Source of the DNA: Psammoneis japonica
Taxonomy: Eukaryota
Assembly (NCBI GenBank): GCA_008632985.1
Contig: QPGO01000055.1
Span: 124,001 to 188,000 of the forward strand
Direction: 5' to 3'
DNA: 64,000 bases
The translations under genes were made by a program, and so were the position numbers. Shown piece after piece: positions 2,798 through 30,689 of this stretch. The notes beneath the pieces are model-generated. The model made no database searches, was not told the origin of the DNA, and was given only the letters and a program-made list of their open reading frames with translations. Every line of letters begins with the position of its first letter. Position 1 is the first letter of the stretch.

Positions 2798-5494
2798 ATG
2801 CGTTTCTGGTTTGCTTCTTGTCTGTTATGGCTGGGAACCGTCTCTGCAGCAGAAGAAAAAAAGTCGGTTCCTCCTTTTTTTCTGCAAGATCCGACCGATT
2901 CTCTCTGTTTGGCCGGCGACGTTTTCCGTCGGTGTTCGATTGATACTCTGTTCTATGTCGTTGGATCTCCCGGTCAATACCAAATTCACAAACGTCCTTT
3001 AGAAGGAGAAGATGAAGAAAGCGATGCAGACGATGGTCTCTGTATTGCAAAAAAGTCATGCGCCGACAAGGACCAGGATAAGACCATGGATGCCAAGCTG
3101 GCCAAGTGCTCTCACTGCGGTGCCAAGAATTGGAACATTTTGGGAGATGCCGAAACGGGATATATTATGACACAGGACAGTGGGAACATTTGTGTCATGC
3201 GAGAAAAGGGAACCAACAAGGCTCTTACGGTCCCGTGCAATCACGAAAAGGCACAGTACACACCGCTTCAATTGCAATTTGCGTCGGCATCGGACATTAC
3301 AGCCATGTCCTCGCCAGCGGCTCGATTGATTGGAGCAGCCAGTGATGGAGATAAGAAATTGGTCCAGTCCTTGCTGAAAACAGAAGACTTGGACGTCAAT
3401 GCCCGTGATTGGGATGATTTGACTGCCCTTATTCCGGCTGCGTCTTCGGGACACTTGGATATTGTCAAATTCTTGCTCAAGGAGGGAGCGGATGTCAACG
3501 CCAAGGATAAGGATGGGATCACGGCTCTCATGGAGGCTAGTATTATGGGACACGTCAAGATTGTGGAAGCACTTCTGGATGCTGGTGCCGAGGTGGACGA
3601 GAAGGCCAATTCAGAAGTGACGGCTCTCTGGCTGGCTGCAGGAGAGGGACAAGTGGAATCTCTCAAGGTTTTGCTCAAGCACGGTGCTGATGCGACTGTC
3701 ACCCGAGTAGATGGTATTACCGCACTCATGACGGCTGGAGTTGGTGGACACGTGGATACCGTCAAGGTCTTGTTGGAAAATGGAGCTGATCCGCGTGCGG
3801 CCGATGGAGATGAATTGACACCACTCATGAATGCTGCCGAGAATGGCAGTGTGGAGATTTTGAAATTGTTGGTGGACGCAGCGGGTGAATCGGAGCCAAA
3901 GTATGTCGATTCCATGTCTACTACGGGTTTTACGGCAGTCATTATTGCTGCGGCTCACGGACACGCCGACGCGATTGAGTACTTGATTGACGCAGGTGCT
4001 GACGTGAATGCAGTCCATGACAATGAAGTCACTGCTCTCATGTACGCAGCAGCATCGGGACACACAGATGCCATGAAGGTTCTTATGGAAAAGGGAAAGG
4101 TCAATGTCAATGCCGAGCATACCAATGGCGGAACAGCTCTCTTAGAAGCCAGTACCGGCGGAGCTGTCGAGGCTATGAAACTTCTGATTGAAAATGGAGC
4201 GACCTTTGACTTTCTTGACAAGGACGGCGTCACACCATTAATGGCGGTTGCATCTCAGGGAAATGCCGAGGCTCAAACTGTTATTCTTGACGCCCTTAAA
4301 ACAAAAATGAATCCCGAGGAACTCGCGAAGCACATTAATCTCGCCTCGTATTCTGGTGGGACCTCTGTCATGTTTTCGGCTGCCGGAGGACATGTCGAGT
4401 GCACCAAGCAACTTATTGAACTCGGCGCCAACGTGAATGATATTGCACGAGCAACACCCGACTATTTGGAAAAGCTGGAAAAAATGATTGAAGAAGGCAC
4501 AGCCCAACAGGACGAACCACATGTCGATGGAGTTACAGCGCTTCACGTCGCGGCCCAATCCGGTCACTTGGAATGCGTCAAGATCCTCTTGGCAGAGGGC
4601 GCCAAGGTGGACGTGAAGGATGACGAATCAAGAACAGCGCTCTTTTTAGCGGTCAAGGGCAATTTCGGAGAAGTGTCAACCGCACTTGTCGAAGCCGGTG
4701 CCGACCCGAATACGGATTATGTCGATGACGAAGGTGTTTCACACAATCTTCTCATGGACGCCATTACTGTTGAAAACTTGGAGTTTGCTACCTTGCTTGC
4801 TGAAAAGGGAGCCGATTTGTATTATACGGACGAGCGCAAGGTAACGACTTTGTTGCAAGCCGCCCATCGTGGATTGAAGGACGTGGTCAAGCTGCTCTTG
4901 GAAAAGCACGATAGCAGCAAGAATAGCGCGTACATTGACAGCGCCAGTGATGAGGGTATTACTCCGTTGATTGCCGCATCATCAGAAGGTCATTTCGAAA
5001 TTGTCAAGATGCTGGTGGACGCCAAGGCTGATTTGAATGCCAAGGACAATGACGGGACGAACTCTCTCATGGCGGCGGCGTCACGAGGCCATGTCAAGGC
5101 TGTAGAAATATTGTTGGAGGCGGGTGCCAATGTAAATGAACAAAATTCAGACGGACACACGGCGCTCATGTTTGCCTACAATGGTAAGAATCAAGTCGAG
5201 ACGCTTTGGGAACGATACAGTCAGTTTGTGGCGGAACAGGAAGCGAGTGGCGAAAAGAAGGAGGGCGAAGACCAAGTTGACGACGGCGGCACTGGTCCCA
5301 TTATTCAAGAAGCTCTCAATAATCACACGGCACTCGTCGACTTGCTCCTCAAGAACGGCGCCGACGCCGCTTTAAAGGATAAGGAAGGACACACAGCAAA
5401 GGATTTTGATTTCCATCCTGATGCCGACTCGGATGTTCTCGATCAAGCCACGATTGCCGCAAAGAAACGCGATGAGAGCAAGAATGAGCTATGA
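2798..5494 (+). CDS. Ankyrin-repeat protein with signal peptide, Cys-rich N-terminal domain and C-terminal KNEL
   Basis: Many GxTALxxAA..GH..VV..LL..GADVN repeats. The start MRFWFASCLLWLGTVSA is signal-like and the protein ends ...KNEL. Confidence 0.92.
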   Translation: MRFWFASCLLWLGTVSAAEEKKSVPPFFLQDPTDSLCLAGDVFRRCSIDTLFYVVGSPGQYQIHKRPLEGEDEESDADDGLCIAKKSCADKDQDKTMDAKLAKCSHCGAKNWNILGDAETGYIMTQDSGNICVMREKGTNKALTVPCNHEKAQYTPLQLQFASASDITAMSSPAARLIGAASDGDKKLVQSLLKTEDLDVNARDWDDLTALIPAASSGHLDIVKFLLKEGADVNAKDKDGITALMEASIMGHVKIVEALLDAGAEVDEKANSEVTALWLAAGEGQVESLKVLLKHGADATVTRVDGITALMTAGVGGHVDTVKVLLENGADPRAADGDELTPLMNAAENGSVEILKLLVDAAGESEPKYVDSMSTTGFTAVIIAAAHGHADAIEYLIDAGADVNAVHDNEVTALMYAAASGHTDAMKVLMEKGKVNVNAEHTNGGTALLEASTGGAVEAMKLLIENGATFDFLDKDGVTPLMAVASQGNAEAQTVILDALKTKMNPEELAKHINLASYSGGTSVMFSAAGGHVECTKQLIELGANVNDIARATPDYLEKLEKMIEEGTAQQDEPHVDGVTALHVAAQSGHLECVKILLAEGAKVDVKDDESRTALFLAVKGNFGEVSTALVEAGADPNTDYVDDEGVSHNLLMDAITVENLEFATLLAEKGADLYYTDERKVTTLLQAAHRGLKDVVKLLLEKHDSSKNSAYIDSASDEGITPLIAASSEGHFEIVKMLVDAKADLNAKDNDGTNSLMAAASRGHVKAVEILLEAGANVNEQNSDGHTALMFAYNGKNQVETLWERYSQFVAEQEASGEKKEGEDQVDDGGTGPIIQEALNNHTALVDLLLKNGADAALKDKEGHTAKDFDFHPDADSDVLDQATIAAKKRDESKNEL

Positions 5495-6297
5495 TTTCAC
5501 CATTATTAACAGATTGGTTTACAGTATTGCTTGTTCTGAGGTACTGTAGTTTCAGTGGCGTTGCTACTTTGGCTTGTTGCCTGCTTCGATTAGACACCGT
5601 ATTTGTTCCTTCAAGAAGAACTGGCTCAGTGATCCGTCTACCTGTATTCGTTGATTTTTGTCATGGGATATGCGAGTTTGCTTCACACCGGAGTGAGTTG
5701 GAGTCTCGTTTTTGACGACGAACCCTGACGTCTAGATTAGTCCCGTCAAGCGCAACGCTACTTTGACATGAATGCCTCTAGCAATGCAGATTTGGAGGAA
5801 CGAATTGACGTACACTACGTACTCCAGTGACTACCGTCGCTTATGCGTTCACGCCTTAATGGTAAGGGAATATCGATGATTTGAACACTTCGTCAACAAC
5901 TTGTCACATCGACATTGTAGTTATGAACAAGTTTTGTCGGCTGCGTTAATAATCTGTCCGAAGGAATCGTCCATTTTTCAACCACCCAACCGTTCGTCTA
6001 CAGAGCAACTCTATCACTGGTGGAGCCGAACCTTTCTCTTGGCTGTATTGCATTCAGGCCAACCTGACGACGAAGGCTTGAACGTGCGCCTGTTGCAGAA
6101 CTGCTCTTTCCCGTCCCTTATGACTTCTCTCGGTCGACTGCAAATTTGTGTTCAAAAGCATCCGATGTCCAGGCGGATTCAGTTTTCGTCGTTGTCTTCA
6201 GATATCAACACCTGGCCTAAAGCGTGAGATTCATTACAATTCCATTGACAGCACCCGAATCTTCTTTATATCTCGACCCTTTTTGTCAATGACCAAT

Positions 6298-9200
6298 TCA
6301 AAGACGTTCGACTGTCTTGTCACGCTCAGAGGTGCATCTTGTGCAACTGAACCAGCATGTCGGATCTGGCAATGGAATTTCAATTCTTTGATCCCTTGAG
6401 AAGAACAGCGTTTCTTTTCCAGTTCGGTACATGATAATAACTTTCAACAAGGATTGGACCCCTTCCTTTGCAGCTGCTTTCGGGCCGGGGTAATCGCCAT
6501 TGACCTGAGACTTACGAAACATCCTCGACCCTAATGTCAAGACCTTGGTTCTGAATCTCACATTGCCCGAACGTCTCATCTTGGATTCAATTGTCACCAA
6601 CACTGGATCTGAGACCTGCACATATTTCGCGTTCGCCTTGTCGTCATTCACGTAACCCGGCATGGCAAGAACATCCTCGCTTTCACAGCTTGAGCTGCCA
6701 CAGTTTTGGTAATCGTTGGTTTTGCAGCAGTCACGGAGACAAATGGGAGATCGATCGAAAATCTGGCAGTAAGACGGGAACTTTTTCGTCAAAGCTAAAC
6801 ATGTGCAGCAACTAAACCTTTCATTTACCGCTCCAAAGGGAGCGCTCAAATCACCCATAATGGATGTACCTGCAACAAAGTAGTTATTGTTCGCGCATTC
6901 GCAGACGCATTGCACTTTGTCGCATCCTCGTGGTCTATTCTGTCTTCCCCTGAGGTCAGAACATTTGTCACACAAAATGTTTGCATCACAATTTGCTTTG
7001 AGGCCATTACCATCCCCGTACATGTATTTATCAGTTATTTCAAATAACGAGTGACCAAGCTCATGCTCCATTGAGTGGTGAATGACGACTGTTTGGAGAT
7101 TAGGCCCGACAGGGAAGCACTTGCTGGCCAACACATGGCTGCGTTGGATGTCGCAACTAAGAAGAAAGAACAAAAGTTAAGCTGACAAAGAAGAGATATA
7201 GAACGAATCTATTGCTGATGCATCAAAGAACTTCTTACCAAAACAATCGATCAATGCCGTTGCAGCCTAAATCACAATACGACTCGTCAAGTCTGGAAGA
7301 ATTCACCATAAAGAAGTTGAGCTCGTCGATGTCTTCTGAAAACATATTGTAGCTTTGCATGAATGTGTAAGTCTTGTTGACGTGATCATGCCAAGCCTCG
7401 TGACCAGCCGAGTCAAATGCTGACGAGACAAACACAATGTTGATTTTGTGCTTTTGAAACGAAGTCCCAAATACGTGCTTGATTGGGTAGCAGTCAGACG
7501 AAGCCATACAAACGCCGCTTCGGCAAGAGGATGACCTGCAGTCCTTGTTGTTTGAGCAAGGCCTTCCAGCACCGACGTAAAGTCCCATGTCCGCGGTCGC
7601 CTCTTCAACTTTTGACTCGTTGCCACCGGTGTCCGGGGATAGCTTGAGCGTGGGTGATGCACTGGTTGGCGCACGAGTGGAACGCGGTGTCGTGAAAGGT
7701 GAGGGTCCTATTGCTGGTATTTGAAATGAAGTCGGCAATTGAGTTGGTATCGGTGTGGGAGGCAATGATGGGAAAGGCGTAGGTCCCTGTCTCGGAGACC
7801 GTGTTGGATACGTTGTTGGTGAAAAAAGTAGGCCTCGGGGTCGGCGCGAGGGACAGAGGAGGTGTTGGAACTAGTGTGGGGATTTGTGTTGGTCTATTTG
7901 TAGGTGCATTGGTCGGGAACGCTGTCGGAGGACGCGTGGGAGGAACGGTTGGATTCTGTGTTGGTGATTAGGCGCAAGAGACGGCGGTGGCGTTGTAGCG
8001 CGTGTCATTGGAGGTTGTGAAGGTTGCTTTGTAGGTGTACTTGACGGAGGAGCTGCCGGTTTATCTGACGGTTCAATAGTTGGTGTATTCGTCGAGATTT
8101 TTGTAGGTAGACCTGTTGGTTGAGGGGGCGTCTTTCCGCCATCGCACTGACATGAAGTATGAAAAGAAACGGTTTAAAAATGATTGAATCCACACGAGGA
8201 TAAGAGAGAGAATAAACTTGATAATGCACTTACTGAGCAGCAAGCTTCGTTTGCAGTGACTCCAAAATTTGCGTAGGAACCCCCGTATTGCTTGCAGTTG
8301 TCATCTATACCATACCAAACACAATTGTAGATCTCGCCGTCAGGTTCATACCAGCCTGCTGGGTCGTCGACACAAACGGTTGGCTTTTCTGTTGGAGAGA
8401 ACGTTGGCGATACCGTAGGCTGTATGTACTGGAGTAGGTGAGGGCGTCGGCAGACGTGTCGGCAATGGGGTTGAGACAGAAGTTGGCTGTATTGTCGGCG
8501 GGTACGTTGGACGACTTGTCACACGTCGATTCTTCCACAAAAACAAATGATTTAAAGCGCGCTTGAACCTATCGCCAGTATCGTTGGTCATTTTATCGTT
8601 TTTCTTGAATTTATTGCCGTTCCAAAAGCAAAACTTAACAGCTTTCCCATTGTCTTGGACAGAGAGCATAATGTCATTCCCATTCCGAGAAGAAGATAGC
8701 CTTACTGGGTTCGGTTCATCACCAAGGTTAGGGCCACTGTACTCTGTTGACCAGCCGCCAATACTATCCCAGATTCTATACTTTATCTGAGACGTGAATT
8801 CCGTTGTGTACGTTGCGAGAGCTCTTCCTGAAGAACTTTCGAATGTGACGGCAATCGCATTGACAGGTTGCGTTTCCACGTTTGAAATCGCCGTCTTGAC
8901 TGATCCCCATTATCCGTCCCAGATGGCCAACCAGTAAGCATAATCCGGGGCCATCGTATTAACAGCCAAGGCAATTCGATTGGTCGAAGCATAGACACCT
9001 AGGGCAAGTTGCTTCACATTGGCCGAGATTTCTCTTGGCGGCAACACAGAATACTCACGACTCCATTCAGAGCCAGTAAAAATGTGGTACCATACACTGG
9101 AAGACTCCAATTTTCCATCCACAACCACCGCTCTCCCGGATTTCTGCTCGTAAGCTACATCGAGTGTCTTTTCATTGAAATTCTTTCCGTTCCTCAAGTC

Positions 9201-9714
9201 GAAACCGCCGTCAAAGTCTCTTCCGTTCCATACTGCGCAATAATCAGAATGTTTATGTACTGAGACCGCTAGGACCATTTCGTTTGAGATGGGATTGGAC
9301 ACCAAGAACAATCGATTGTTGGTACCACTTTTAATCAAAGAGTCGAAATTAAAATTCTTTGCTCCAGTCAGTGCCATTCCATGTGCGGTAGTAAATCGCG
9401 TCTTGTACACCTTTGTTCCACACTAGCAGTGAAACCCATGCCTCCAACTGTTGTCCGCACTATTGTCTAGAGGCGAGAAAGGGAGATCGTTCCAACGACA
9501 ATCGCTTCATCGCGAGACGGTGAGTACGCACCCCGTGTATTAGTCCATCTGTTTCTTGTATTGGTCTCATAGTACCGAATTCAGAGAATTTCCCACCATC
9601 CCAGAGCGCATAGCCAGGGCTTGCCGATCCGCTGTTTGCCCAAATTGCTATTCCCTCGTTTCTTCGCCGCCTGCAGTGACGAGAAGCGAAATGAACAACA
9701 CGAGACTGCTCCAT
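6298..9714 (-). pseudogene. Fragmented gene for a secreted protein: W-N/D-G repeat region, Pro/Thr linker and HExxH metallopeptidase (M64-like) domain
   Basis: Consecutive minus-strand ORF pieces (9460-9714, 8910-9410, 8346-8879, 7235-7765, 6298-7173) with YALWDG/AVWNG/FWNG motifs, PTxxPT repeats, KINIVFV and HELGHSLFEITDKY. Multiple frameshifts or stops. Confidence 0.55.
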
Positions 9715-9926
9715 GATAAGGAGCCTCTACAGCATGGTATGTTTCGCAGCAGTTCGCATATTGTGTCCCTTTGATACCATGAATAGTGACGTCTATCGTA
9801 CATGGGTATTCTCTTCATTCGTCTTCTCCTCTCCTTCTTCCGTTTGATGTCACCAGAGCACCACGCAACCCCCAGAGATTTCAGATTTGAGTTTGTGACG
9901 GCATGCTGGAAGCTGGAATGCGGCGG

Positions 9927-10134
9927 TGTGAAGATATCATATTTCATACGTCATTACATTATGACTCACTGTCCCAAAAATGACTCATAAACATCGGTCT
10001 TCAATGAGAGACGAGGAGCCTCTCACATCCTCACAATTTTACTACAGCTGTTATTGTAACACCTATTTGATCGCCCCAATACTTACTAGTCATCACTAGC
10101 TACCGCTACTGATCTGCTTTTGAGTATTTAAACA
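9927..10134 (+). repeat. 5' LTR
   Basis: TGTGAAGATATC...TTTAAACA; aligns without gaps to 15921-16128 with 14 substitutions. Confidence 0.96.
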
Positions 10135-10156
10135 CGCTTCCTCTGCGCTAAGTAAC

Positions 10157-11466
10157 ATGTCTGATGCCTCTTCAGACGCTTCGTCCGTTTCTGGACCGGA
10201 GCTAGGAGATGTTCCCGAAGATGTCCCATTTGCATTGGCTCCGGCACAAGTGATCACCACGGTCATCGATTATCGTTCGAGTGCGGGTCGTAAGCTTTTT
10301 GAGCAAGCTGCCAAGCCGCTGGACGAGGAATTGTTCGATTGTGAACCAGGAGACCTGTGCCAGTTCCTCAAGAACTTGGAAGACAGAGCCAGAGAGTTTG
10401 GGTGGAATGATGAGAACGGAGTGTTCATGATCCCAGAAGACCACGAAGACATCCTGGAATCCGAGAGGTCTAATCTGTTGACCGACTGTGGTCAGATGGA
10501 CCCAGAGAGGATCCGGGGCTTTGAAGAATCCTCATCGGTGACGAGAGTCGCGCAGCGCAAGATGCCCATCTAGCGTGTCGCTGCCTGATGAACTCCACAT
10601 CGAAAGCCGGAAAGGATAAAGTGAGGATCTGGGAATCAGAACACAAGATCGGAGATCGCACGTCCGGAAATCTCCTTCTCAAGATCATTGTCAGAGAATC
10701 CCACCTCGATGCGAACGCCACGACGAGTGCGATCCGAACGAAATTGAGTCAACTCGACCTCTGTCTCCCAACGATCGGTCATGACATCTTGAAGTTCAAC
10801 CAGCACGTGGCATTGTTGCTTGCCGCCCTTGAGTCACGAGGCAAAACCACTGAGGACCTGCTTGCGAACCTCTTCAAGGGGCACCTGGCTGCTTCCGACA
10901 AAGTTTTTGTCAAGCACATCGAGCACAAGCAAGAACAGCATGAAGAGGGCGAGGACATGTCGGCGTCGCAACTTATGAACCTCGCGGGCAACAAGCACAA
11001 GAACCTGCTTCAGAAATCGCCATGGAACGCCCCTGGTGCGTCTGAAGAAAAGATCTTGGCTCTCCAAGCTCAAGTGGAGGCCCTCAGCAAGAAATCCCAC
11101 AAGAAGACGGGAAACAAGGGAAAAGACCACGACGCGTCTCAAGGTGCTCAGAAAGACGGGAAGCCTGCGTGGTTGAAGAAACACAGGCGTCCCAAACGCG
11201 ACCAGTTGGCCAACCCGAGAACTTGGAAAGGTGCCGCATGCTGTTGGTGTGAGAAGAGTGCCGGCGGCAAGTGTTCTGGCAAGTGGCGTGTCCACAAGCC
11301 CTCCCAATGTGAAGGCAGAGAAGGCAAGAACAAGCCACAGAAAAACGAGTCTACAGCACCACCCCACAAGAAACAGAAGGGACCTGACGGACACCCACGG
11401 CTCAAGCTCAACAAAGCATGCCAAGCCGCAGTGGACGGGCAGGACTCGGGCGAGGAGTCTCAATGA
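10157..11466 (+). pseudogene. gag: copia gag (frameshift near 10530)
   Basis: ORFs 10157-10573 and 10588-11466 join with a frameshift. Motifs IRTKLSQLD and DLLANLFKG, plus a C-terminal W-C..C.GKWRVH zinc-knuckle-like segment. Confidence 0.85.
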
Positions 11467-11781
11467 CTCCTTGAGCACGGCTGCAGCAGTTGTGATGGAC
11501 ATGGGTTGGAAACCATGGCGTCGAAGTGTTTTGCGATCATCAAGGCAACTGCGCTCTTCGCCTGGCAGGCATTCGCCTGCAACTGCACAACCATTATAAT
11601 GACGTCGCTCTCATTTGAAAACAAACGAGTGATCGAACAAAAGCTGCTAGCTTGTGCTCTAATTTTACTGTCGACAGCGATGGTCCTGATCCACATTTAC
11701 TTCTACGCGACCGACCCCAACCACAAGCCCGGACACACACCGAAACGGAAGAGATGGCACCGGGTACGATGAGGGTGGACC

Positions 11782-14700
11782 ATGCTCACTGAAGGCATGT
11801 ACAAGACAGGGACCAGCATTGAGCAGATTGTAGAAAGCATCACCACTGCCAACAAACCCAGAAGAGGGAGAACAATCAAGATCCAACGTGCCGCAACAAA
11901 GGTGAAACCCAGACAGAAGAGGCGAACATGGGGCTTGATTATGGCGCTAGCCATGGTGGCCATGCAAGCCGAAGGGAAACACATAAAAGAGCACACCGTC
12001 ACGTTTGACACCGATTCTGGGCCAGTCGGAGTGGACAACAGATGTGCAGGTTGCATGTCCGACCGAACAGAAGACTTCATTGGCGAGCTGAGAGACACAA
12101 GAAGAACCATCAAGGGATTCGGTGGCTCTCGAACTACAGGTGTGAAAGTTGGCACCCTGCTGTGGAGATGGAGTGACGATGAGGGAAAGACACACAAGTT
12201 CGCAATCCCCAACTCATTCTACGTACCTGACGGCAAGGTCCGCCTGCTAAGTCCCCAACACTGGGCAAAGGCACTGAGAGACAACAAGCCGATCGAAGGA
12301 ACTGGATCAAAGACAAACTCGAAAGAGGTCACACTGTTCTGGAACCAACGAAAGCATCGACTGACTATGCCGTTGAGCGAGACTACGAACGTAGCCACCT
12401 TCCGCTTAGCACCGGGTTATCAGAAGTTCGAAGCATTTTGCGCCGACGCGGACATCGATCCAGCGAAAGAAGTGGACGATCCTCTCCTTGCACAAGATGC
12501 AGCAGTTGTCAGTGATGACGAGGACGAGGAAGAGACGGATGTCCAATGCGATGCAAAAAGCATCGCCAAGGAATGGCAACCTGAACCCCAGGAGGTGGCG
12601 CAAGAGACAGGGTTGGCTGCCGATCAGCGCGTCCACCCACTGGGAGCAACGTTTGACATAAATGGGCCAACAAGCAGTGGCAACTCAGAGGGAGCACCGA
12701 CTGCTCCACCGCCACGAGTGGTGGAAGATGAAGAAGACAGACAGCCAGATACGGATGCGGCGCTGCTCCTCAAGCACCACCAACAATTTGGGCACATTGG
12801 CTTCACAAAGTTGCAATGGATGGCAAAGATGGGCATTCTACCAAGACGGCTCGCAAAGTGCAACGTGCCTGCTTGCTCGGCATGCCTGTGCGCAAAGGCG
12901 ACCAAGAGAAAATGGCGCGACAAGGCACGGAACGATGATGCCGAGATAGAAGCTCCAACAAAACCAGGCCAAATTGTCTCAGTGGATCAATTGGTGTCTC
13001 CGACACCGGGTCTAATCGCACAAATGACGGGCTTCTTGACCACAAAACGGCACAAGTGCGCCACAGTCTATGTCGACCAGCACTCCAAATTGGGCCACGT
13101 TTGTCTGCAAAAGACAGCAACGGCAGCTGAAACGTTAGAGGGAAAACAAGCTTTCGAGTTGCATGCAAAGAGTTGTGGCGTGACCGTTCAGGCTTGCCAT
13201 GCTGACAACGGAACATTCAAGGCCAACAACTGGGTGCACACGTGCAGGAGACAAGGGCAACAACTGACGTTCGCTGCCGCAGGCGCTCATCACCAAAATG
13301 GCACAGCAGAGCGACGGATCCGAGAGCTCCAAGAGCTCGCCCAAACAATGTTGATCCATGCCAACAGCCGCTGGAAGAAGTGCATTGCCACAAATTTATG
13401 GCCCTGCGCGATTCGCATGGCCTGTGACGCCATCAATCATGCGCCCAACCTCCAACACAAAGACCGATCAGGCCCACTCCAGCTGTTTTCCAACACGAAA
13501 GTTGCCACCAATCCAAAGCACTGGAAACCATTGGGTTGCCCAGTGTACGTGTTGGACTCCGCATTGCAATCAGGTCTGTCGTGTCACAAATGGAAAGACA
13601 GATCAAGGGTTGGAATGCACTTAGGCCGAAGCCCACAACATGGCAAGAACGTGGCCCTGGCACTCGACCGAGAGTCGGCACTATAAAAGCCGGGTTCGTT
13701 GCTCAGAGGGAGACAAAAGGAACCAAGAAGAGTGGCGAGACCAAAACGGCTCCCACAAGTGCTCCGGATCGTCCCAAGAAGAAGTGCGCACGAGCTTCAG
13801 AGGGAGCGGGGCAAGGCAAGAAACGAAGAACCATTCGTTGGGCTGACCAACTAACACGGCCACAAGATGGCGATGCTGCAGCAACCGACAGCCAATCGGT
13901 GTCCGAACGAGAGATGCGCCGAGAGCCCAATCACAACAAGGCCAACGCATCCGAAAGGACTGAATCTCTAGAAGCACCTCCACATGAGGGCGAGTCTGAT
14001 CAAGCATGAGACGGTCATGCTGAACCAAAAGTGACACGATCAGGGCGCAAGAGCCAACCGGTCAGCAGATTGATTGAGTCCATGGAGACTGAGATCAAGA
14101 AAGACACTGAAGGAGGCGTCGACGGAGAACTGCTGTGCTTGGCCGCACTGCATCCTCGAGACTCGCAAGCCCTCCAAGAAGAAGTCGCAAATCCCCTCCT
14201 TGCCTGCAAAGCATCAGCAGATCCTGACACCATGTGCATGCACCAAGCCATGAAAGAACCGGACCGCAAGGAGTTCCTCAAGGCGATGCAAAAAGAGGTG
14301 AAGGATCAAATGGAAAATGGAAACTGCTCCATCATTCCAAGATCACAGGTGAAACAAGACAGAAAAGCACTGCCTGCAGTGTGGCAAATGAAGCGAAAGC
14401 GAGACATGCGCACCCGAAAGGTGAAGAAGTGGAAAGCGCGACTTGACATTGACGGCTCGAGGATGAGAAAAGGAAAAGACTACGATGAGACGCATGCGCC
14501 GGTTGCATCACGAAATTCAATGCAGCTGCTGCTTGCCTTAGCAGGAGCACATGGGTGGCATTCAAAGCAACTGGATTGTGTCCTCGCTTTTCCTCAAGCA
14601 CCGGTCGAAAAGGATCTCTACATGGAGATTCCGTCCGGATTCGAGCTCGAAGGCGCCAACACCAAGGATTATGTCCTGCGCTTGCATCGGAATGCACACG

Positions 14701-15851
14701 GGCAGAAGCAGGCAGGGCGAGTCTGGAACAAGTGTCTCGTGGACAAGTTAGTCAACAAGTTGGGTTTCGAGCAATCCAAGGTCGACGAGTGTGTGTTTTA
14801 TCGCGGAAAAACGATTTGCCTTCTCCACACGGATGATTCTTTGCTCGTAGGCCCTGATGAATCTGAGATCAACAAGATCATAGAGGAAATCAAGCAAGCA
14901 AAGTTAGATGTCACGGTGGAAGGCGACGTTCAAGATTTCCTTGGCATAAACATCACCAGAAAGTCGGATGGAACGATGCACCTGACGCAACCCCACCTGA
15001 TCGACCAGATTCTGAAAGACTTGCGACTTGATAAACCGAGTGTCGTCGGAAAAGACACACCTGCAGCTTCATCCAAGCTCCCATCCAGGCATTCAGAATC
15101 AAGACCATTTGACAATTCCTTCAATTGCAGGTCGATCATCGGCAAGCTGAATCACTTGGAGAAATGCACCCGAAGCGACATCGCGTGCATTGCGCACCAG
15201 TGCGCGAGATTCACTGCAGACCCGAAGGTAGAACATGGCGAGGCCATGCGGTGGCCAGGCAGATGTCTGTATGTCACGAGAGACAAAGGTGCAATTCTGA
15301 AACCAGATTCCAAAAAGGATTTGGAGGTGTACGTAGACGCTGACTTCAGTGGCAATTGGGATCGAAAGGAAGCTGCGAGCGACAGAGATGCCACAAGATC
15401 CCGTCACGGGTGTGTCATCACTTACGCTGGTTGTCCCATCCTTTGGAAGTCTCAGCTACAGACTGAAATGGCGTTGTCCAGTGCCGAAAGTGAACACACC
15501 GGATTGTCGTATGCCTTGCGAGAGGCCATCCCTGTGATGGAAATGTTGAAGGAACTGAAGTTGCGAGGGCATCCAATCAACTCGACGACGGCGAAGATGC
15601 GCTGCAAAGTTTTTGAGGACAACAGCGGCGCTCTGGAAATGGCGAAGGTACACAAGTGCAGACCGCGCACCAAGCACCTCAACGTGAAGCTGCACCATTT
15701 CCGTGACTGTGTCAGTCGAAAGGAGATCTCAATCCACTCTATCGACACCACTGCACAATTGGCCGATTTTCTAACTAAAGCGGTCAATCTGGACGTTCTG
15801 CTTTGGTTGCGACCGAAAGCAATGGGTTGGTGGGTATTTGAAATACTTTAA
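11782..15851 (+). pseudogene. pol: copia pol (protease, integrase, reverse transcriptase, RNase H), disrupted near 13685 and at a stop at 14007
   Basis: Protease-like GVDNRC; integrase HQQFGH..CSAC, VSVDQ, HADNG and HHQNGTAERRI; RT KARL, GQKQAGRVW and LLHTDD; RNase H VYVDADF, FEDNSGA, RTKH and QLADFLTK. Confidence 0.95.
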
Positions 15852-15920
15852 AAGTGGATTCGCGCGCAAAGTGCGTCAAACCTTCATTTTCGAGATGCAT
15901 GAGATCAAAATGAGAGGGAG

Positions 15921-16128
15921 TGTGAAGATGTCACATTTCATACATCATTGCATTATGACTCACTGTCCCAAAAATGACTCACAAACATCGGTCTTCAATG
16001 AGAGACGAGGAGCCTCTCACATCCTCACAATTTTACTGCAGCTGTTATTGTAACACCTGTTTGATCGCCCCAACACTCACTGGTCATCACTGGCTGCCGC
16101 CACTGATCTGCTTTTGAGCATTTAAACA
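15921..16128 (+). repeat. 3' LTR (TpA-mutated copy)
   Basis: Same length as the 5' LTR and immediately follows the polypurine tract. Confidence 0.96.
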
Positions 16129-19100
16129 CGGCGGGACTCGGAAAAAGTCACAGGAAAGCTCATGCCGGCACCGGCAAAGAAGCATCAAAGCCCCCGTTTG
16201 AGAGAGACATTTTTGTTGTGTTACAGCACAAATGACTGCATGATCGAGCAAGTCATTCAGGGCACCGGACGTTGTCCTGAGGCTTCGCACCAACGCTCAA
16301 CAACTGACAGCGCCATTTTGTTGATCCCACCACCACACAAATTGCGTGTTTGAGCGCACCTCACTCTTCTCTTGCTGCAGCGGGCATCTGAGCCTTTGTT
16401 TTGCAAGAACACCACATTTGGCATGTCATCAGCTGGGGTCTGTTTTTGGGAGGCATCAAGATCAGCAGCCGGCGCCCTGTGTGTGGCAAAAAAAGTGGCA
16501 GCATCGCGAGCAAGTGTGGGCACAGGAGATTGGTTTGGTGGCAGCTGAGAATGAGGCAGCTCAAGATGAGCTCTGGCCCATCATCACACAAGCACAAGGG
16601 TGATGCCACACCATGGCTCTCACGTGCAAAGCAGCAGCCGTTTGGCTCCAAAGAACATTTTGAGACTTTGAGAAAAAGACTGCAGCAGCTCCACCCTGAT
16701 GTTTTAACTCTGGCAAGTGAAGTTCATCAACCAGCTCTTGGTGTGTGGTTGTTGAGCTGGCAAGTCAATGTCACCAAAAAGGGAGCCCCGCCAGGCTTGT
16801 TCCTGCGCCACTTGTTGTGCTTGACTTGGTGATCTGCAATGGCTGTCGGGGTTGCCAAAAGTTGTCAACACAAGTGCAAACTTGTGCAACAACCGGTGCC
16901 TGCCAACACACCAAATGACCAACCAAATGATTTGCTCTAAAGAGTGAGATGAAAGTCAAAGGTGGGGGGTTGATGATTGTGAAAGCCTTCTCACAGAGAG
17001 TCTCCCAGCAAACCACATCAGGTTTTAAAATGTCTTTCCTTCAACACGTCTGGGTGCCTCACAATGTCTGTGCGATCCAATTGCTCCAACAGCAGCTCAA
17101 GAAAAAAGAAGCAGTCAAACAATGTTGATGCAATTTTGCTGGTGCAGCTGCTGCCCCTGGTGCAAAATTTTTGGTGAACAGAAGCTCTCCCTTTCATGCC
17201 TCTGCTCTGGGTTGACTGCAGAGATGCAAGGCATGGAGTGTGAAAGCTCAAAGGTCATGTGACTTTTGCACTGATTTTTCTTTGTGGATTGTGCAGTGCA
17301 TGTTCTTGGCATGGAAGAGGTGGAACTCTGTTGGAGCTTTGCATGCATTGTTGCTGTCAACTGCTGTTGCTGTGCTGGCTGGGTGCAGAAGCTGAAAAAG
17401 AGCACAAGACCCACAACTCAAATCAAGTTGCAAACACAAACTTGCCACATTGACAACAGTCATCAGCACATCTTTCCACTGCAACTTTTTGTCTGTCTGT
17501 CCTGGGAAAACTGCCTCTGAGACCCCAATGTTCTGGCACACTCCTTTGCATGAGAGCGACCTCTCATGTGCACCAAGCAAAGAAGGATGACACTTGGAAT
17601 CCCTGCCACCCAACACCATGTTGACTGGTCTGCATCACACAACTCCACCAACGAATGATCATTGTGGGGGCAATCCTTTCTCACATGCCCAGCTTTGTTG
17701 CATTTCCAGCATCTGGGCCAATCTGCGTCTTTTTGCTCTGCACAAAACTTGTGCCATCATGTTTCTTGTTGGCTCTGTGGTGTCCAACACCTGCAAGAAT
17801 GCCTCCTCAGCTAAATTGGGACAAATGTCAACCCCCAATGTGAGCTGCCGATGCAGGTCTTTCAATGCATGCCAATGATCCTTGGTGCCTTCCACTGGCA
17901 TCACTGCCAACTGTTTGTTCCTTTCTTCTTCATTCCGGGTGTCATCAGCATCCTTGCTGAACCCATCTTCTTTCTTGGCAGTTTCTCTTGGGAAGATCCT
18001 GCCAACTGCTTCCAAGCCTTGACTGCCTGGACATGTGGGGTTGTCTTTTCTCATTTGCATTGAACAAGATCAACTTGAGAACATCCAGCAGTGCTGTCAC
18101 ATCCCAGCCTCCTTTGTGACTCTGGTGAACTCCATCACTCCTTCTGGTTTGTGACAAATGGCCTTGCCTTCTCACATTGCCCCATGATGACATCAAATGC
18201 CCTCGCCTTCCATTGCCCACAAGACTCAAAACGTGTTGTGAGCATTGCTTCTCACAAAAAGAGCAGAGCCCGATGGTCAGCGTGAAACCGTGGCATGTCA
18301 GTGCCTCAAAACTGGATCAAATGGAGATGACAGGCAAGATGTTCCCTTGACTTGGTGGGACAATGGCAAGGAAGACAATTGTTGTCAAGTGTGTTGCTGA
18401 AAAGATCTGTGAAGATTCCATTGTTTTGGCTGTCTGTCCTGTCAACTCCTTTTTTGTTGACAACGGCATTCTCCGAGTGTCAACTTTTGATGTCTAGATT
18501 TTTTGACAGGCGCCAATCTGGCATTCTGACAGGCTGCAATGCGTCCACGGGTCTGACCATGTGGCACTCAGGTGATGGTTTCCCGTCAAGGCAAAAAGTC
18601 CTTCTCCTTGATTGAAGCAAGCTTTGCTTCTCTTTGTTTCTTCGCACTGTGCGTGGAGGTTGCATTTCATGTGTTGGCACCATGAAGTTTGACCTTGCCT
18701 TTCTTCTCAACCCCAATGAAAAGTCGTCCTTCAAAAAGTTTGTGAAACATTCCATGTCAAAGCCCCATGCATGCTCCTTGGAGGAATCAGAAAACTGGTT
18801 TCTCATTCCGATGAGACGGGTGGAGGCAATGACCACAGTGCCGGCATCTTGGGAACTTTGCGGGGACTGCTCGATCAGCCAGCATTCCTCTTCCAAGTTC
18901 TCACATCCCAAGAACACAGTCGGAGGTTCAGCTCTCTGTCAACAAGGAAGCCGCTGAGCAACGAGATGCTCAGATGTTCCACAGCCACAGAGTGGTGTCT
19001 CAATCGGGAGATGATGTCTTTGGTGGCACCTGTGATTCTTCTGTGGTCAACTCCCAGCAGAGGCCCTGGGGGTCAGCCTGCTGGAGGCCCACTGGGACAG

Positions 19101-19908
19101 CCCACCACTCTGTTGCCACCCAAACACAGAAGCTGCTGATGAGGAGATGCCATGTGACAAACGAACACTGCACTCCAGCGCAAGTGGACAAAGAGCAGCT
19201 CCTCTTTGAGACTTCCCCACCAACTCTTTCCTGCAGGAATGCAATGGAAACCGTGCACTCTTTAAGGGAATGTGTCACCACCACAAACTCGCATGCGGAG
19301 ACAAGATTTAAAAGGTGGTTGCGAAGATTCTGGCAAATTTCATGTCGACTGCGATCTGCTGCTGCATCTTTTCAGTGCATCAGACCCAAGACTCTGCGGC
19401 AACACCCCGATGCCCAAATGGCTCCCTTGTTGCCACAGAAAGATGAGGAGACAAAGAAACAGAGATGAGGAATTTCCAACAATCCGTGACAGAAAAAAAA
19501 TGGAATCACTGCATTTCCCACTCTCCGCTGTGCTTTGTCTGATTGCCACACTCTGGATGTTTGTCCGCAAACTTCTTGCATGCACGAAAGAGCTCCCATC
19601 CTGGATGGGCAAGGAGCATGTGCTCTGGGTTCTCATCAGGATCATCGTTGGGATGGGCATCTTCATTGGCATGCTTCATGACAATCCCCACACACAAGCA
19701 GATTTCCGACTTTCGAAGCTTGTCCTTGAGCTTTTCCTCCCAATCACCACAGGCGTCGATGAGGCTTCATAGTTTGAGGTGGTTTTCTGCAGGAAGCTTC
19801 TTCTTCTTTTGCGTCGATTGGTGCTGTTTCTTGGTTTCTGGTTCCTGCTGTGACGCAAGACAACCCTCCATCTCGGCGTGGCGCACCGCGGCTTCTTTCT
19901 CACCGGAG

Positions 19909-20166
19909 GCCTGTTCCAGCTCCAGGTGCTCTGCTTTTCAACACGTGAGAGGCCGATTTTCTGCGCAGTTCAGCGCAATTAACTCCTTCAATTTTGATTG
20001 TTTCGAAAATCGAAAGGTGAGTGTACACCCGAAAACACATGCAAAGTGTACACTCACCCTTCGATTTGGCAAAAAACGGATTTGGAAAAAGTTAATTGCG
20101 CTAAATGCACAAATTTCCAAATGATGGGAATCGAACCCGCGCGGAGCACCTGGAGCTGGAACAGGC
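19909..20166. repeat. Imperfect ~260-bp palindrome, probably two transposon ends back to back
   Basis: GCCTGTTCCAGCTCCAGGTGCTC (19909-19931) pairs with 20144-20166, AGCGCAATTAACT pairs with AGTTAATTGCGCT, and AAATCGAAAGGTGAGTGTA (20007-20025) pairs with TACACTCACCCTTCGATTT (20049-20067). Confidence 0.8.
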
Positions 20167-20675
20167 CCGGACAACAAAGAATCCGACACGCTGCTCGCAG
20201 TGGAGGGCAATGAATGTTCCGGGGGCGGGTCCGACGGGGGCGGGTCCGAATCGGATTTCCATTTGGTGCGCAATGTAGGCTGCGTCGTTGGCTGCTTGAG
20301 CAAGGTTGCTGTTTTCTCTTCTCCAACACGAGCATTGATGTCTGGTGCACCCGCGACCTTGGAGCAGTCTGGCAATGCATCCGCAGACTGTGCTGGAGGG
20401 GTGGCCATTTGCGTCAATGAAGTTTGTGTCAAGGTCGTACGCACTGGAGGACAAAGTGTCAAGTTCAAGAAAGTGTTGCGTTGTTGCTGTCATTTGACGT
20501 GTGATGCACAGACGTTGTTGACTCGCTGTGATGTCAGTTCATGAACAATTCATTCGCGCCATTTTCGCTCCATCCCCACTGCAGTGCACACAGCACATGA
20601 GCCACCCCTGTGCAAGGGCTGCTGTGGGATGCAGGTGGGTGTGGTGCATTGAGCAACAACTCCCATCCCATGGCA

Positions 20676-22635
20676 CCCCCAATTCTCTGGCCACGAAACA
20701 CTGAGGGCAGGAGTTGACCATTTTTCACCCATTCTCAAACCACTCCACCATGATGACACGTCTCCTCCTTCGTCACCAACAAATTGCCAGGACTCCATTC
20801 CTGCTGAAGTTGTTGACATTGACGCTGATGCAAGAGGTGAGACTGTTGCTCCAGCTGTCATGTGCCTCACACAGCACCCCAAACAAGAACATGCAAACTC
20901 ACGCTGTTGTTTTCATGCTCTGCTGCCTGCTGCCTCCTCACCTCCCACAGGTGATGCCCCCTGTGCAAGAACACCATCCCTGCATTTCTCGCCACTGCCA
21001 TGCCTGATGCTGTCAATGTGCAAGGCATTGGGCAAGGTTGTGAAGACTGGGGCACACACCAAGAAGGGCCTCAGTGTCCTCATTGCTCTGGGAGGTGCCA
21101 CTTGCTTCTCACTGTGCACACAATGAGGTTGCATTCCTTGCGCTTGGAAAGGCAAGTCTGATGGATGTCAAGGCACACAGATTTGAAGAATGCGAGCCTC
21201 ACTCTCTCACACTTTTGTGCGTCCTTCTTTTCAATGGGTCAACCCGGTTGCCCACACTGTCAGAAACATCGTCAAGCATGCCGTTGCTGTTGTTGCCTCA
21301 GCCATTGCATTCAAGACCCCCATGAGCACTGGCTCCATTGTTGGATCATCCACAGCTGTTGCTGGTGCACTTTTGCATTCTTGCTGTGAATGCTTCAAAG
21401 GAGAAGAAAGAAGAAGCCAGAGCAGAACATTGTGGAACATTGTTTTGCACATGACAGACTGCGCCATCACGGAGGACAATGCTGTCACTCCGTGTGGGAT
21501 GACACCAACTGCTGGAGCCATCAGCAAAACAATGACTGCTTTCTTGTTGTGCTCACTTTCTGCACATGGTCATCAAAATCATTTTTGACAATCTCCCAAA
21601 ACCAGGCAACCGTCTTGCTCTTGTTCCCCTTGTTGTCTTCCCATGGACCCGGGTGTGTTGTGTTTGCTTCCCAATCATCCTGTTGCAGATGTTCAAAGCA
21701 ATGGGAAAACCCAGGACAGGTGACTGGAAATTGTGCATTGATCAAAAAGCGCTCGGCACATTGCTCGTCCGAGGATGCAAAGCAGGTGGTCATCAGAACA
21801 ACAAATGTTGGGAACCGTGTTGGGTGTGCTGGTCACAGGAGGGGCGGTGACTGGGGAGCAAGCTGCTGCAGCTGCGCTGTGCTCAAGACAGTCATTTGAT
21901 GCCATCATGGGTGCAAGCTGCTGGAGCTGCACAAGACAGTCAGTGTCATTTGATTTCACCACATCCGTCCTGATGATCTGTGGGGGCGCAACCAGCACTG
22001 CGGTGCACTGGAGTGTGAAAAAGAAACAGTGTGAGTCACACAAGGATCACAGGTGTTTTTGGAGCACAGCAGCCACAGAAACATCCTTGCCTTTCAAAAT
22101 GGGTGCAGTGGCATCAGCACTGGGTGCACCAGTCCTGTGAAAGGCAGGCAATGTGCTGGCATTTGGGGCAGTGTCTGTGGCAGGTGCTGCCACATGAGAG
22201 AAACAGCGTCAGTTTGCAGCACAACATTTTGGCGGTGTTTGGCAAAAGAGAGGCAAAGCAACAACATTGCCTCTTGTGTCCATTGCATTGGGAACAGTGC
22301 AGGGTGTGGCACTTCCAGGATGTGGAGCCACGGTGTTGTCATTCACAACAGAAGCTGCGGCAGGCACTGGAGTGTGAGAAACAGAGTGTCCACAAACAAG
22401 CTCTAATTTTGGAAGCAGCAGGCATGCGATGGCCACAGAAATGACATTGCCTGACACACCAGAGTCATCATGGACTGTGTCAACAGGCGCCGTGTCGTGG
22501 CAAAGTGTTCATGACGAATCACTCAACATCATCATGGTGAGTTGTTGTTGACGTGTGTCATTTGTGTGTTGCGCAACAAGAGGCGAAAAATGGTTGAGTG
22601 CTGCCCTCAGTGTTTGGTGGCCAGAGAATTGGGGG
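20676..22635. mobile_element. Putative non-autonomous TIR DNA transposon remnant (~1.96 kb)
   Basis: ~55-bp inverted repeats: CCCCCAATTCTCTGGCCACGAAACACTGAGGGCAG... at 20676-20730 and its complement at 22581-22635. No clear TSD and no transposase recognised. Confidence 0.6.
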
Positions 22636-29285: not shown

Positions 29286-30180
29286 TTATGTGGTCGTGTA
29301 TAGTGTCAACGCTGCCTCTAGTTTATTCGGCTTGAAATCTTCTTTGCTGGGTGGAAGCATCTCCTTTCGATTCTTCATTCTCTTGCGGCGCGAGTGCCAG
29401 ACGCAAAAGCCACCAATGATCAACAATGCAAAGATGCCACCGAGGATTGCTCCAACAATGACTCCAGTGTCGCTGTCATCACTGCCATCTGCATCACTGG
29501 GAGGTTGCATGGGAGACCTTGCAGTGGGTCCATCTTCAATCAGAACACCATGTGCCACAATGTTGCTCCCCACAGAGAAGGACTTTCGCTGATTGCAGCC
29601 TGCAATGTTTCAGTGTCAACAAGGCACTCTTTTTGCTTCACTGTCACCAGGGAGATGTCACACAAACAGGGTCAACAAAGGCTGCAGCTGGAGCATGGGC
29701 AATGGCCCCTGCCTCTTGAAGGAGCCTGCAGTGCCTGGAGGTTTCCAAAAATGATGTGTCAACCACAAACGACTCAAAAAGTCAGAAAGAAAGAGATCAA
29801 AGAGGTGGTCAGAAGTCATCAATGTGAGAGTGCAGCCTCATGTGCATGCATGGCAGTGAACCTCAAGACAAAGTCTTCAAGCTCAACCCATGCAGGAAAC
29901 AATGGCTCTGTTGAAGGATTCATGGGAGGGCTGGCTGGCAGTTTGAGAGCACGCAGCTGGCTCTGAAGGAGGGGGGATGTGTTGTTGTTAATGTGCTGAA
30001 GAGCCAGTCAGAGGGCCAGCAGTGGCTGCACAGAGGCATCTTGAAAGCTTGCTCCTCAGCACTGCCCCCTCCCCAACAACAAAAGGGCGCCACTGGTTGG
30101 CCAAGCATCAGCTGGGTTGTTGCACACAGCCTCTGCTGCTCTCCCACATGGTCAGCCACCAGACTTGTTCCAGCCGCACG
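29286..30180 (-). pseudogene. Degraded gene for a single-pass membrane protein (TpA-depleted block 2)
   Basis: The C-terminal piece reads GVIVGAILGGIFALLIIGGFCVWHSRRKR (TM helix plus basic stop-transfer). The upstream part is broken and lacks TpA. Confidence 0.5.
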
Positions 30181-30689
30181 TGAACCAAATCGTGCACAAA
30201 AACGACATTTGCGCGATTTTTGCGCGGTCCCTAACTTACGATCGAACTTTCACCACCAAAAGTATAGATTTATACAAAATATAGGGCCCTAAATGTTTTG
30301 CAACACTAACAAGACTCGTGTGAGTGTTGCAATATCATTGTTATTGTGCCATCTATGTTTTTCATTGCGTTAAAAGATTCGTAACACAACGGATGATTTT
30401 CGGGGAAAATATTGCCGTTATTTGGATGTTACCTAAATATATCTTTCTACGACGATGCTTGGTAGGTTTTCTACCTACAAAGAAATCTCAGTATAAATCC
30501 ACTGATGTACAATCAGTATTGAGTCTACTGAGGAAGTTTATGATACATATCCCATGAGGATTTGAATACCACTCAAAAAACTATTTAAGTGTTCATACTC
30601 TAGAAGCCTATAAAAGTCAATCCGTCTAAGTATTTTTTATTAAAATGCTATATACACTCAAATATACATAAATTATGTTCAAAATCCGA

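Follow-up and report, generated by a model that had tools for sequence, protein, structure and literature searches.

To our knowledge, the classical mutational genome defenses, namely repeat-induced point mutation (RIP), APOBEC-type deamination and the decay of 5-methylcytosine, all proceed from C to T, and nature offered essentially no known case of targeted A:T→G:C hypermutation of DNA before a single preprint of 2026. Here we examine a window of 64,000 nucleotides, by which we mean the whole stretch analyzed (Psammoneis japonica, contig QPGO01000055.1, positions 124,001–188,000; coordinates below are those of the window), which carries a Ty1/copia retrotransposon whose two long terminal repeats (LTRs) differ almost exclusively at the dinucleotide TpA. 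We consider it very probable that a regional hypermutation of TpA to TpG or CpA, acting after integration, hit this copia element in its body and 3′ LTR, together with the neighboring DNA.

The closest described system is that of Bigelowiella natans, whose mutation-accumulation lines showed TpA-only A:T→G:C hypermutation arising de novo (Mettrop et al., bioRxiv 10.64898/2026.01.13.699255). There, 231 of 302 new nuclear point mutations fell in integrated giant-virus and virophage regions, and in 230 of those 231 an A→G or T→C change struck a TpA, at a rate of ~6e-7 per site per generation and in some lines only; the genome carries 124 clusters of TpA-poor, CpA+TpG-rich windows, and an ADAT2-like protein is proposed, without proof, as the enzyme (10.64898/2026.01.13.699255). 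The original prediction for the present DNA, made from the sequence alone, did not recognize such a system as described, a view that the preprint overturns. The mutation spectrum is identical in the two cases, consisting almost only of A→G and T→C changes that always fall on TpA and yield TpG or CpA, depending on which strand is hit; both are also confined to particular regions, are directed at non-host DNA and leave a lasting imprint in which TpA is lost and CpA+TpG gained. Mobile DNA is likewise the part affected here, where the copia element is purged and neighboring genes keep normal TA. The hosts differ, a member of Rhizaria there and a diatom-like stramenopile here, as do the targets: giant-virus and virophage inserts in B. 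natans, whose TpA-poor coding sequences show only a statistical enrichment of reverse transcriptase (RT) and DDE domains, and here an LTR retrotransposon with datable LTRs together with old repeat tracts. Depletion is also deeper in the window (Rho_TpA of 0.00–0.12, against 0.45 in the B. natans virus region), CpG is lost here as well, unlike in B. natans, and activity, observed directly in B. natans, is here deduced from sequence. By the thresholds of the preprint, 17 of the 64 1-kb windows scanned in our stretch pass, with three clusters of at least three such windows.

RIP, a fungal and premeiotic process known from Neurospora and other fungi, resembles the present case in being a heritable, post-integration, dinucleotide-specific burst of transitions that disables mobile DNA and leaves sharp-edged tracts. 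It differs in that RIP changes C:G to T:A, mostly at CpA, and makes TpA, AT-rich DNA and stop codons, whereas here TpA is destroyed and no stops are made. The RIP indices are accordingly inverted: rather than a raised TpA/ApT and a lowered (CpA+TpG)/(ApC+GpT), the affected DNA shows a TpA/ApT of 0.00–0.39 (0.00–0.17 in the largest tract, against 0.5–0.8 in the upstream flank and background) and a (CpA+TpG)/(ApC+GpT) of 1.3–2.3. Deamination of 5-methylcytosine at CpG also feeds CpA and TpG and co-occurs in the tracts described below, where the observed/expected ratio (o/e) of CpG is 0.23–0.46, but it concerns another dinucleotide and another base and is far slower here, the copia body having lost ~70% of its TpA at a CpG o/e of 0.84. 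APOBEC3 (on cDNA) and ADAR (on RNA) of animals disable retroelements through clustered transitions with a neighbor-base preference, and ADAR-type enzymes, according to the preprint, prefer U before the target A (10.64898/2026.01.13.699255); both, however, act before integration and on one strand, leaving the two LTRs alike or showing only G→A or A→G on the coding strand, whereas here the LTRs differ, both strands are affected and the flank is included. A search of open full text, subscription-only papers lying outside it, brought up the B. natans preprint as the one account of such mutation and no report of TpA hypermutation in diatoms, and a look-up of terms in Maumus et al. (2009; PMC2806351) and of a 2025 preprint on diatom transposable elements (10.1101/2025.10.24.684338) found no mention. 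The process thus has a precedent, though apparently none reported from diatoms, and it has gone much further toward completion here than in B. natans.

Divergence of the terminal repeats and direction of change

A repeat search over 9000–17500 returned a single direct repeat pair, which we trimmed to the canonical TG...CA ends. The resulting LTRs (TGTGAAGA...TTTAAACA, with ends TGTG...AACA) are 208 bp each and align without a gap (Table 1). These ends, the 6-bp target-site duplication and the order gag–integrase–RT, with PF13976 (gag_pre-integrase) upstream of PF07727 (RVT_2) in Pfam, identify a Ty1/copia element, putatively akin to the diatom copia elements named "CoDi". A column-by-column comparison confirmed the central observation of the original prediction: the LTRs differ at 14 sites, every one a transition, and 13 of these read TA in the 5′ LTR. 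Seven read TG in the 3′ LTR (A→G at 9936, 9956, 10044, 10065, 10088, 10098 and 10102), six read CA (T→C at 9940, 9988, 10080, 10084, 10107 and 10125), and the fourteenth, at 9950, is CG in the 5′ LTR and CA in the 3′ LTR. Since TA covers only 18% of LTR positions, the probability that at least 13 of 14 differences fall inside it is 2.9e-9, and the 13:0 split of TA between the LTRs has a two-sided binomial p of 2.4e-4. The 5′ LTR holds 19 TpA and the 3′ LTR 6, all 6 common to both and none private to the 3′ LTR; conversion in the 3′ LTR would amount to 13 of 19 TpA, against a single change across the other ~170 positions. Because the target-site duplication is intact, both LTRs derive from one insertion event, and a recombinant of two elements is ruled out; as the LTRs of this one insertion nonetheless differ, the changes are post-integration and on both strands. 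With 7 TG against 6 CA, and with the inverted RIP indices, the further proposal that TA→TG and TA→CA are one event on either strand, opposite in direction to RIP, is supported.

Two sequences alone do not tell which is ancestral, and the polarity was sought in the coding region. The RT-RNase H open reading frame (ORF) has 1454 relatives at E ≤ 0.001 among 7999 candidates scored, the closest named one being a Fragilaria crotonensis protein at 64% identity; the public protein collection contains no close copy, the best match being 68% identical, and polarity was therefore taken from conserved residues. In an alignment with the top 40 homologues (60–68% identical), 19 columns have tyrosine in at least 80% of the relatives. 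The window copy has Cys at seven of them (TGC/TGT), His at five (CAC/CAT), Trp at one and Tyr at the remaining six; the Trp is a lineage variant, since four relatives have it too. Even the tyrosine of the RT active-site motif Y-x-D-D is now a histidine. Altogether 36 differences occur at 331 conserved columns, 22 of which fit a single TA→TG (14) or TA→CA (8) step under a classification that prefers the TA type when several ancestors are possible, the 12 tyrosine cases being unambiguous; steps outside tyrosine codons include T·ACC→T·GCC, T·ATC→T·GTC, ATA→ATG and CTA→CCA. Against all 120 listed relatives, 14 of 19 conserved tyrosines are Cys or His in the window copy. A tblastn comparison with an intact reference (P0002) gave Tyr→Cys/His at 12 of 17 positions, while only 18 of the 260 conserved positions of other kinds differ (Fisher p = 1.2e-9), with no Cys/His→Tyr change at any conserved position. 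The erosion runs through the element, with 2/2 conserved tyrosine columns changed to Cys or His in gag, 3/4 in integrase and 9/12 in RT by tblastn, and corresponds to conversion of ~70% of TpA in the body against ~7% change at other conserved residues.

Such erosion is rare but not private to this copy. Three of the 120 public homologues, from jgi and ena, show the like (P0059 at 16/19 tyrosines, P0010 at 7/19 and P0108 at 4/18), and P0059 retains 1 Tyr in 701 residues, against 3.9% Tyr in the other relatives; the remaining 117 have at most 2 Tyr→Cys/His changes. The 79 related copia loci in metagenomes have 0–2 each, with a TA o/e of 0.27–0.98 (0.47–0.82 in the closest 12), so that the window copy, at 0.23, lies below all of them. 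Two loci of low TA (L042 and L034, TA o/e 0.27–0.30, CpG 0.24) were not counted, having just 1 Tyr→Cys each.

Additional polarity comes from sister copies of the element. We compared contigs of a public sequencing run, X1, in which 0.73 of sampled words match the stretch, over 20 kb at 80% likeness; contigs of run X2 cover parts only and those of X3 none, and no conclusion is drawn from uncovered parts. Over the unique flanks, X1 gives single contigs with a word depth of 58–70, whereas the summed depth over copia bins is 429–680, which is not a copy number but suggests several related copies. The best-supported 40 of 1601 difference rows, to which all counts of between-copy events given here refer, resolve into 30 events: nine adjacent double CA↔TG changes (eight in copia, one in the largest tract), five sites with TA in the window and TG or CA elsewhere, three of the reverse, nine with CA or TG in the window and CG elsewhere, a sign together with the CG→CA difference between the LTRs of CpG decay, and four others. 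Four of the double changes were compared with relatives. At 14826/7, a Tyr codon in 77 of 78 relatives, the window reads CAC and another copy TGC; at 15264/5 (Tyr in 78/78) the window reads TGT and another copy CAT; at 13618/9 it is again CAC against TGC (Tyr in 44/60); and at 13214/5 ACA stands against ATG, Ile being commonest in relatives. Alternative products at one ancestral TA imply that the copies were hit independently and on different strands. The lost tyrosine codons and the alternative products together make TA the ancestral state. The predicted direction, TA to TG or CA, is thus supported by TAY→TGY/CAY codons and sister copies as well as by the TA-free, CA/TG-rich tracts described next; the outgroup comparison polarizes the element body, the LTR sites themselves lying outside it.

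TpA loss in the element body and across the window

A 1-kb scan with a list of TA positions over the whole window places the element in a wider context. Background DNA has a TA o/e of ~0.55 and a CpG o/e of ~1, while the copia body has 71 TpA against 306 expected (o/e 0.23), its CpG o/e being 0.84. TpA is normal across the upstream flank and the whole 5′ LTR, to ~10203, and then low through the body and the 3′ LTR. Conversion follows a step and no gradient, at 0/19 in the 5′ LTR and then ~70% from gag through the 3′ LTR, the untouched zone comprising the 5′ LTR plus roughly the next 70–140 bp. Past the element, the flank at 16135–16500 is TA-poor with normal CpG, and the process therefore extends beyond the element. 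Unlike the older tract beyond it, this flank keeps its CpG, and its TpA loss seems a recent spread together with the copia.

The signal is in fact not confined to the LTR pair: a tract without TA and enriched in CA/TG begins beside the 3′ LTR, and others like it lie elsewhere in the window (Table 1). At least five tracts, covering ~40% of the window and with edges of ≤ ~350 bp, fit the same process near completion, accompanied by CpG decay. In tract 1, CA numbers 1174 and TG 1219 (o/e 1.74 and 1.70), and the deficit of 1109 (682 TA plus 427 CG) is matched by an excess of 1004 (501 CA plus 503 TG), with the other 12 dinucleotides at o/e 0.84–1.28; a stretch of 1966 bp (20438–22404) contains no TA at all. 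Its right edge is sharp, TA being dense from 27423, just upstream of the malate dehydrogenase gene (27555 onward). Tract 2, with CA at o/e 1.95 and TG at 1.80, has a sharp left edge, where TA occurs every 10–40 bp up to 40859 and next at 41305. CA about equals TG in all tracts, ApT (o/e 0.80–0.85) and AA and TT (1.21–1.36) are not depleted, and GC content is unchanged in purged DNA, at 0.46–0.50. Microsatellites or low complexity were rejected as the cause of TA loss, the tracts being ordinary complex sequence.

The TpA that survive in the old tracts occupy particular contexts. Over the full extents of tracts 1, 2 and 3, 39 of 58 survivors lie in TTAA (18) or CTAA/TTAG (21), against 217 of 1554 in the background, and only five of the 58 lie in A-TA-N contexts, against 712 of 1554 (chi-square p = 1e-23), which hints at a flank-base preference of the mutator. 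The choice of strand is unclustered by a runs test (8 runs against 7.5 expected in the LTR, 14 against 11.2 in RT), which argues against long single-strand processive bursts, and strand-coordinated bursts of that kind were rejected. Because CpG is at 0.84 in copia and at 0.23–0.46 in the old tracts, TpA loss must be much faster than CpG loss.

What, then, is the target? Part of the original prediction, that a dedicated mutator acts on repeats, stands in that a TpA process acts on both strands, but its target looks like a chromosomal tract and not repeats as such, because ~370 bp of flank are TA-free and the equally repeated 5′ LTR is untouched. As for duplication, which defines the target of RIP, one of two equally repeated LTRs is mutated, the flank at 16135–16500 is purged, and the stretch at 18672–19338, with a summed depth of only 65, is TA-free too; duplication alone probably does not define the target here.

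Table 1. Features of the window discussed in the text (TA and CG given as observed versus expected counts, with o/e in brackets)
Feature	Positions	Strand	State, composition or basis
Target-site duplication, left copy	9921–9926	.	CGGCGG; identical 6 bases on other flank
5′ LTR	9927–10134	+	Unmutated state, 19 TpA; TA at normal density onward to ~10203
Copia body	10135–15920	+	Pfam and composition; coding region broken into several frames
gag ORF	10525–11466	+	
Protease/integrase ORF	11773–13686	+	
RT-RNase H ORF	14010–15851	+	
3′ LTR	15921–16128	+	Mutated state: 13/19 TpA converted (7 TG, 6 CA) and one CpG→CpA
Target-site duplication, right copy	16129–16134	.	CGGCGG; identical 6 bases on other flank
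Flank past the element	16135–16500	.	TA-free save one TA at 16222, CpG normal; composition
Purged tract 1, old	16131–27250	.	TA 39 vs 721 (0.05); CG 242 vs 669 (0.36)
Small purged patch	29324–30200	.	0–1 TA per 200 bp, CpG-poor, CA+TG-rich
Small purged patch	30700–31343	.	TA-free, CpG-poor, CA/TG-rich
Purged tract 2	40860–46065	.	TA 12 vs 375 (0.03); CG 63 vs 279 (0.23)
Purged tract 3	50909–52880	.	TA 5 vs 125 (0.04); CG o/e 0.46
Clusters passing the B. natans thresholds	16001–19000, 20001–27000, 41001–46000		plus 2 windows at 51001–53000

The tracts hold little recognizable coding sequence. A Pfam search of 137 ORFs in purged tracts gave three matches that passed the family cut-off or had E < 1e-4, namely zf-CCHC, a TPT fragment and a sub-threshold DUF5560. 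The zinc-knuckle remnant (PF00098, zf-CCHC; 17466–17756, minus strand) is the sole retroelement-type domain detectable in tract 1. The second match, a C-terminal fragment of a triose-phosphate/phosphate translocator (PF03151, E 2e-9; 21187–21585, plus strand), would be a host-gene copy caught in a purged tract; an X2 contig (1238 nt, depth 191) matches 21016–21152 and 21290–21421 at ~90%, as from an intact paralogue. Part of tract 1 seems to consist of a very abundant repeat family, since the summed contig word depth at 19339–20672 reaches 5341–9169 where unique DNA has ~60, and at 20001–20250 both TA (4) and CpG (20) exceed the rest of that tract. A direct repeat of 154 bp (17365–17517 and 25432–25582), 86% identical, 8 kb apart and with several CA↔TG swaps, may be the LTR remains of an older element, though it is too short and gapped to count; X1 contigs join its two copies. 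Between the two small patches, 30200–30800 is a TA-rich (14–22 TA per 200 bp) yet CpG-poor island; the ORFs at 29324–31343 have no credible Pfam match, and the surrounding genes are normal.

The window is otherwise gene-bearing, with ordinary eukaryotic genes in long exons for an ankyrin protein, RsfS, malate dehydrogenase, Mob1, PCNA, Arf, an Rce1-like protein, DUF501, an RRB1-like WD40 protein, a kinase, VPS13 and LigB. Those near tracts (malate dehydrogenase, RRB1-like, kinase, PCNA and Arf) have normal TA. The RRB1-like protein has a best match at 80% and is 57–65% identical to proteins of Mayamaea, Epithemia, Cylindrotheca and Nitzschia; judged by such similarity, the host genes resemble those of raphid pennate diatoms, most likely the group of the host, and Bigelowiella is rejected as the host, since the matches include no named entry that is identical or nearly so.

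Proposed process and its rivals

The sequence of events that we envisage begins with integration of the copia element, after which a targeted process would turn TpA into TpG or CpA on either strand, that is, A:T into G:C at the A of 5′-TA-3′, across the body, the 3′ LTR and the adjoining DNA, sparing the 5′ LTR and the following ~70–140 bp. In the older tracts the process would have run nearly to completion, with CpG decay alongside. It makes no stop codons, and disables by missense, chiefly Tyr→Cys/His. The outcome would be the irreversible inactivation of mobile DNA, and targeting may be by a silenced or methylated chromatin domain rather than by sequence repetition. As for the chemistry, the tRNA adenosine deaminases prefer U or T before the target A, which matches the TpA motif, and a candidate enzyme would be an ADAT2/TadA-like deaminase that turns adenine into hypoxanthine, read as G, in a T-A context, as proposed for B. 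natans.

Alternatively, an enzyme might oxidize or otherwise alter the thymine of TpA, with 5-hydroxymethyl- or 5-formyl-uracil as conceivable products, or some other lesion at that place might arise, and mispair with G, giving the same direction of change with no adenine deaminase at all. Dinoflagellate DNA indeed contains 5-hydroxymethyluracil preferentially at TpA and TpC, and since the outcome is strand-symmetric (7 TG against 6 CA in the LTR, 14 against 8 in RT), either base of the pair could be attacked; the unclustered choice of strand would also fit such a double-strand, site-by-site process. Nothing points to a modified thymine in this organism, however, and the sole experimental report proposes an adenine deaminase, itself equally short of proof, so that we regard thymine modification as unlikely, though worth keeping in view.

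The remaining explanations fare worse. The LTR differences might be read in reverse, with 13 TpA of the 5′ LTR newly made from CpA/TpG by C→T change of a RIP-like or methylation-driven kind and the 3′ LTR still in its original form. RIP in many fungi prefers CpA, and the 5′ LTR is TA-rich (91 TA per kb, against 40 per kb in the background), as a RIP-like gain would make it. Yet such a gain would have to stay within 208 bp, beside a body that shows the reverse, with tyrosines lost to Cys and His and none regained, and next to an upstream flank whose TpA/ApT, like that of the background, bears no mark of RIP; the TA poverty of the 3′ LTR is shared by the body and the flank beyond it, and both the host genes and the relatives of the element point to a diatom and not a fungus. 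This reading is very unlikely. We find it hardly probable, too, that modified TpA in heterochromatin was miscalled as TG or CA over true TA, although the tracts coincide with CpG-poor, probably methylated DNA and the runs matching the stretch all come from one sample. Mutations of the same kind were called de novo from Illumina data in B. natans (10.64898/2026.01.13.699255). In the window, conversion in copia is partial and site-specific (~70% changed, the remainder being clean TA), one and the same site can bear different products in different sister copies, and the same Tyr→Cys/His pattern recurs in the three proteins from jgi and ena. The original prediction had itself named this artefact, and the X1 contigs answer it in part: k-mer contigs at ~60× reproduce the TA-free sequence of 16047–22275 (16047–17955, 18067–19936, 20937–21602 and 21577–22275, with 1, 3, 0 and 1 other letters), the first of them (1909 nt, word depth 66.5) showing 8 of the 14 LTR sites in the 3′-LTR state and so confirming 16047–16128, while the 5′-LTR sites are absent from the best 40 of 1601 rows, which leaves read support for the LTRs partial. 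Edited retroelement copies are known in animals, so that adenosine-to-inosine editing of the transcript, or deamination of the cDNA, before integration also comes to mind. Reverse transcription, however, derives both LTRs of an insertion from a single template, so that changes made before integration would be common to the two and cannot account for 13 differences spread over both strands. RNA adenosine deaminases do favor U before the edited A, as the preprint notes (10.64898/2026.01.13.699255), but an edited genomic RNA would carry A→G confined to the coding strand, and here T→C makes up 6 of 13 LTR and 8 of 22 RT changes, and the flank at 16135–16500, which is not part of the element, is purged too; we judge this route extremely unlikely. 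Finally, TpA is under-represented in the background as well (o/e ~0.55), as GC-biased gene conversion or selection against TpA/UpA might bring about with no dedicated process. We give this virtually no credence: the tracts show no shortage of ApT, AA or TT such as a general AT→GC drive would produce, selection cannot favor the loss of a catalytic tyrosine in a dead element, and neither force accounts for sharp edges or for 1966 bp with zero TA.

Several points nevertheless weigh against a regional, post-integration TpA hypermutation, or against parts of it. The direction at the LTR sites would rest on the adjoining body, the flank and parsimony, rather than on other LTR copies, and the sparing of the 5′ LTR may reflect either the edge of a tract or gene conversion from an intact copy, both of which fit. 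An ancestral CpG is a further conceivable source of the adjacent CA↔TG swaps; as CpG decay affects the window copy, those at unchecked sites may descend from CG. None of the 79 metagenome copia loci shows the signature, which is accordingly not general among related elements. The X1 data are not fully independent: the run comes from the sole sample that matches the stretch, its library type is not on record, and the assembly itself may have been built from it. From sequence, adenine deamination and thymine modification would look alike, and past activity is what the tracts would record, continuing activity being a matter of conjecture. Lastly, 100 ORFs scanned outside the purged tracts gave no match to deaminase families, which agrees with the expectation of the original prediction that the enzyme lies outside the window.

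Possible meaning for genome defense in diatoms

Should a regional, post-integration TpA hypermutation be the right reading, the window adds to the B. natans case a second, ecologically dominant lineage with a TpA-only signature, the diatoms, which are major marine primary producers, as well as LTR retrotransposons as a target and a near-complete extent with sharp borders beside genes. The LTR pair furthermore serves as an internal clock, in which TpA can be set against every other position of the same repeat. Practical consequences follow for annotation. The tracts lose tyrosine codons and TAA/TAG stops and acquire long spurious ORFs, and transposable-element annotators and homology searches miss them; because TAA and TAG are removed and no stops are made, dead copies such as P0059, P0010 and P0108 are predicted as long "proteins". 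Dating by LTR divergence, in turn, overestimates ages unless TpA sites are masked. A natural enzyme that converts the A of TpA in chromosomal DNA would also interest base-editing research.

More broadly, and as a tentative proposal that we place somewhat short of probable, diatoms may carry an enzymatic genome defense that erases TpA from silenced mobile DNA through adenine deamination in double-stranded chromatin tracts, a mirror image of RIP. If this is true, there is in nature a DNA adenine deaminase that works on duplex or chromatin DNA, and these genomes could reveal it; the defense would erase TpA at some hundred times the pace of other substitutions, near to completion, with rules for the flanking bases (TTAA and CTAA survive) and sharp stops beside host promoters. 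The defense would be shared with that of Bigelowiella, or convergent on it, and possibly ancient in the supergroup of stramenopiles, alveolates and Rhizaria (SAR).

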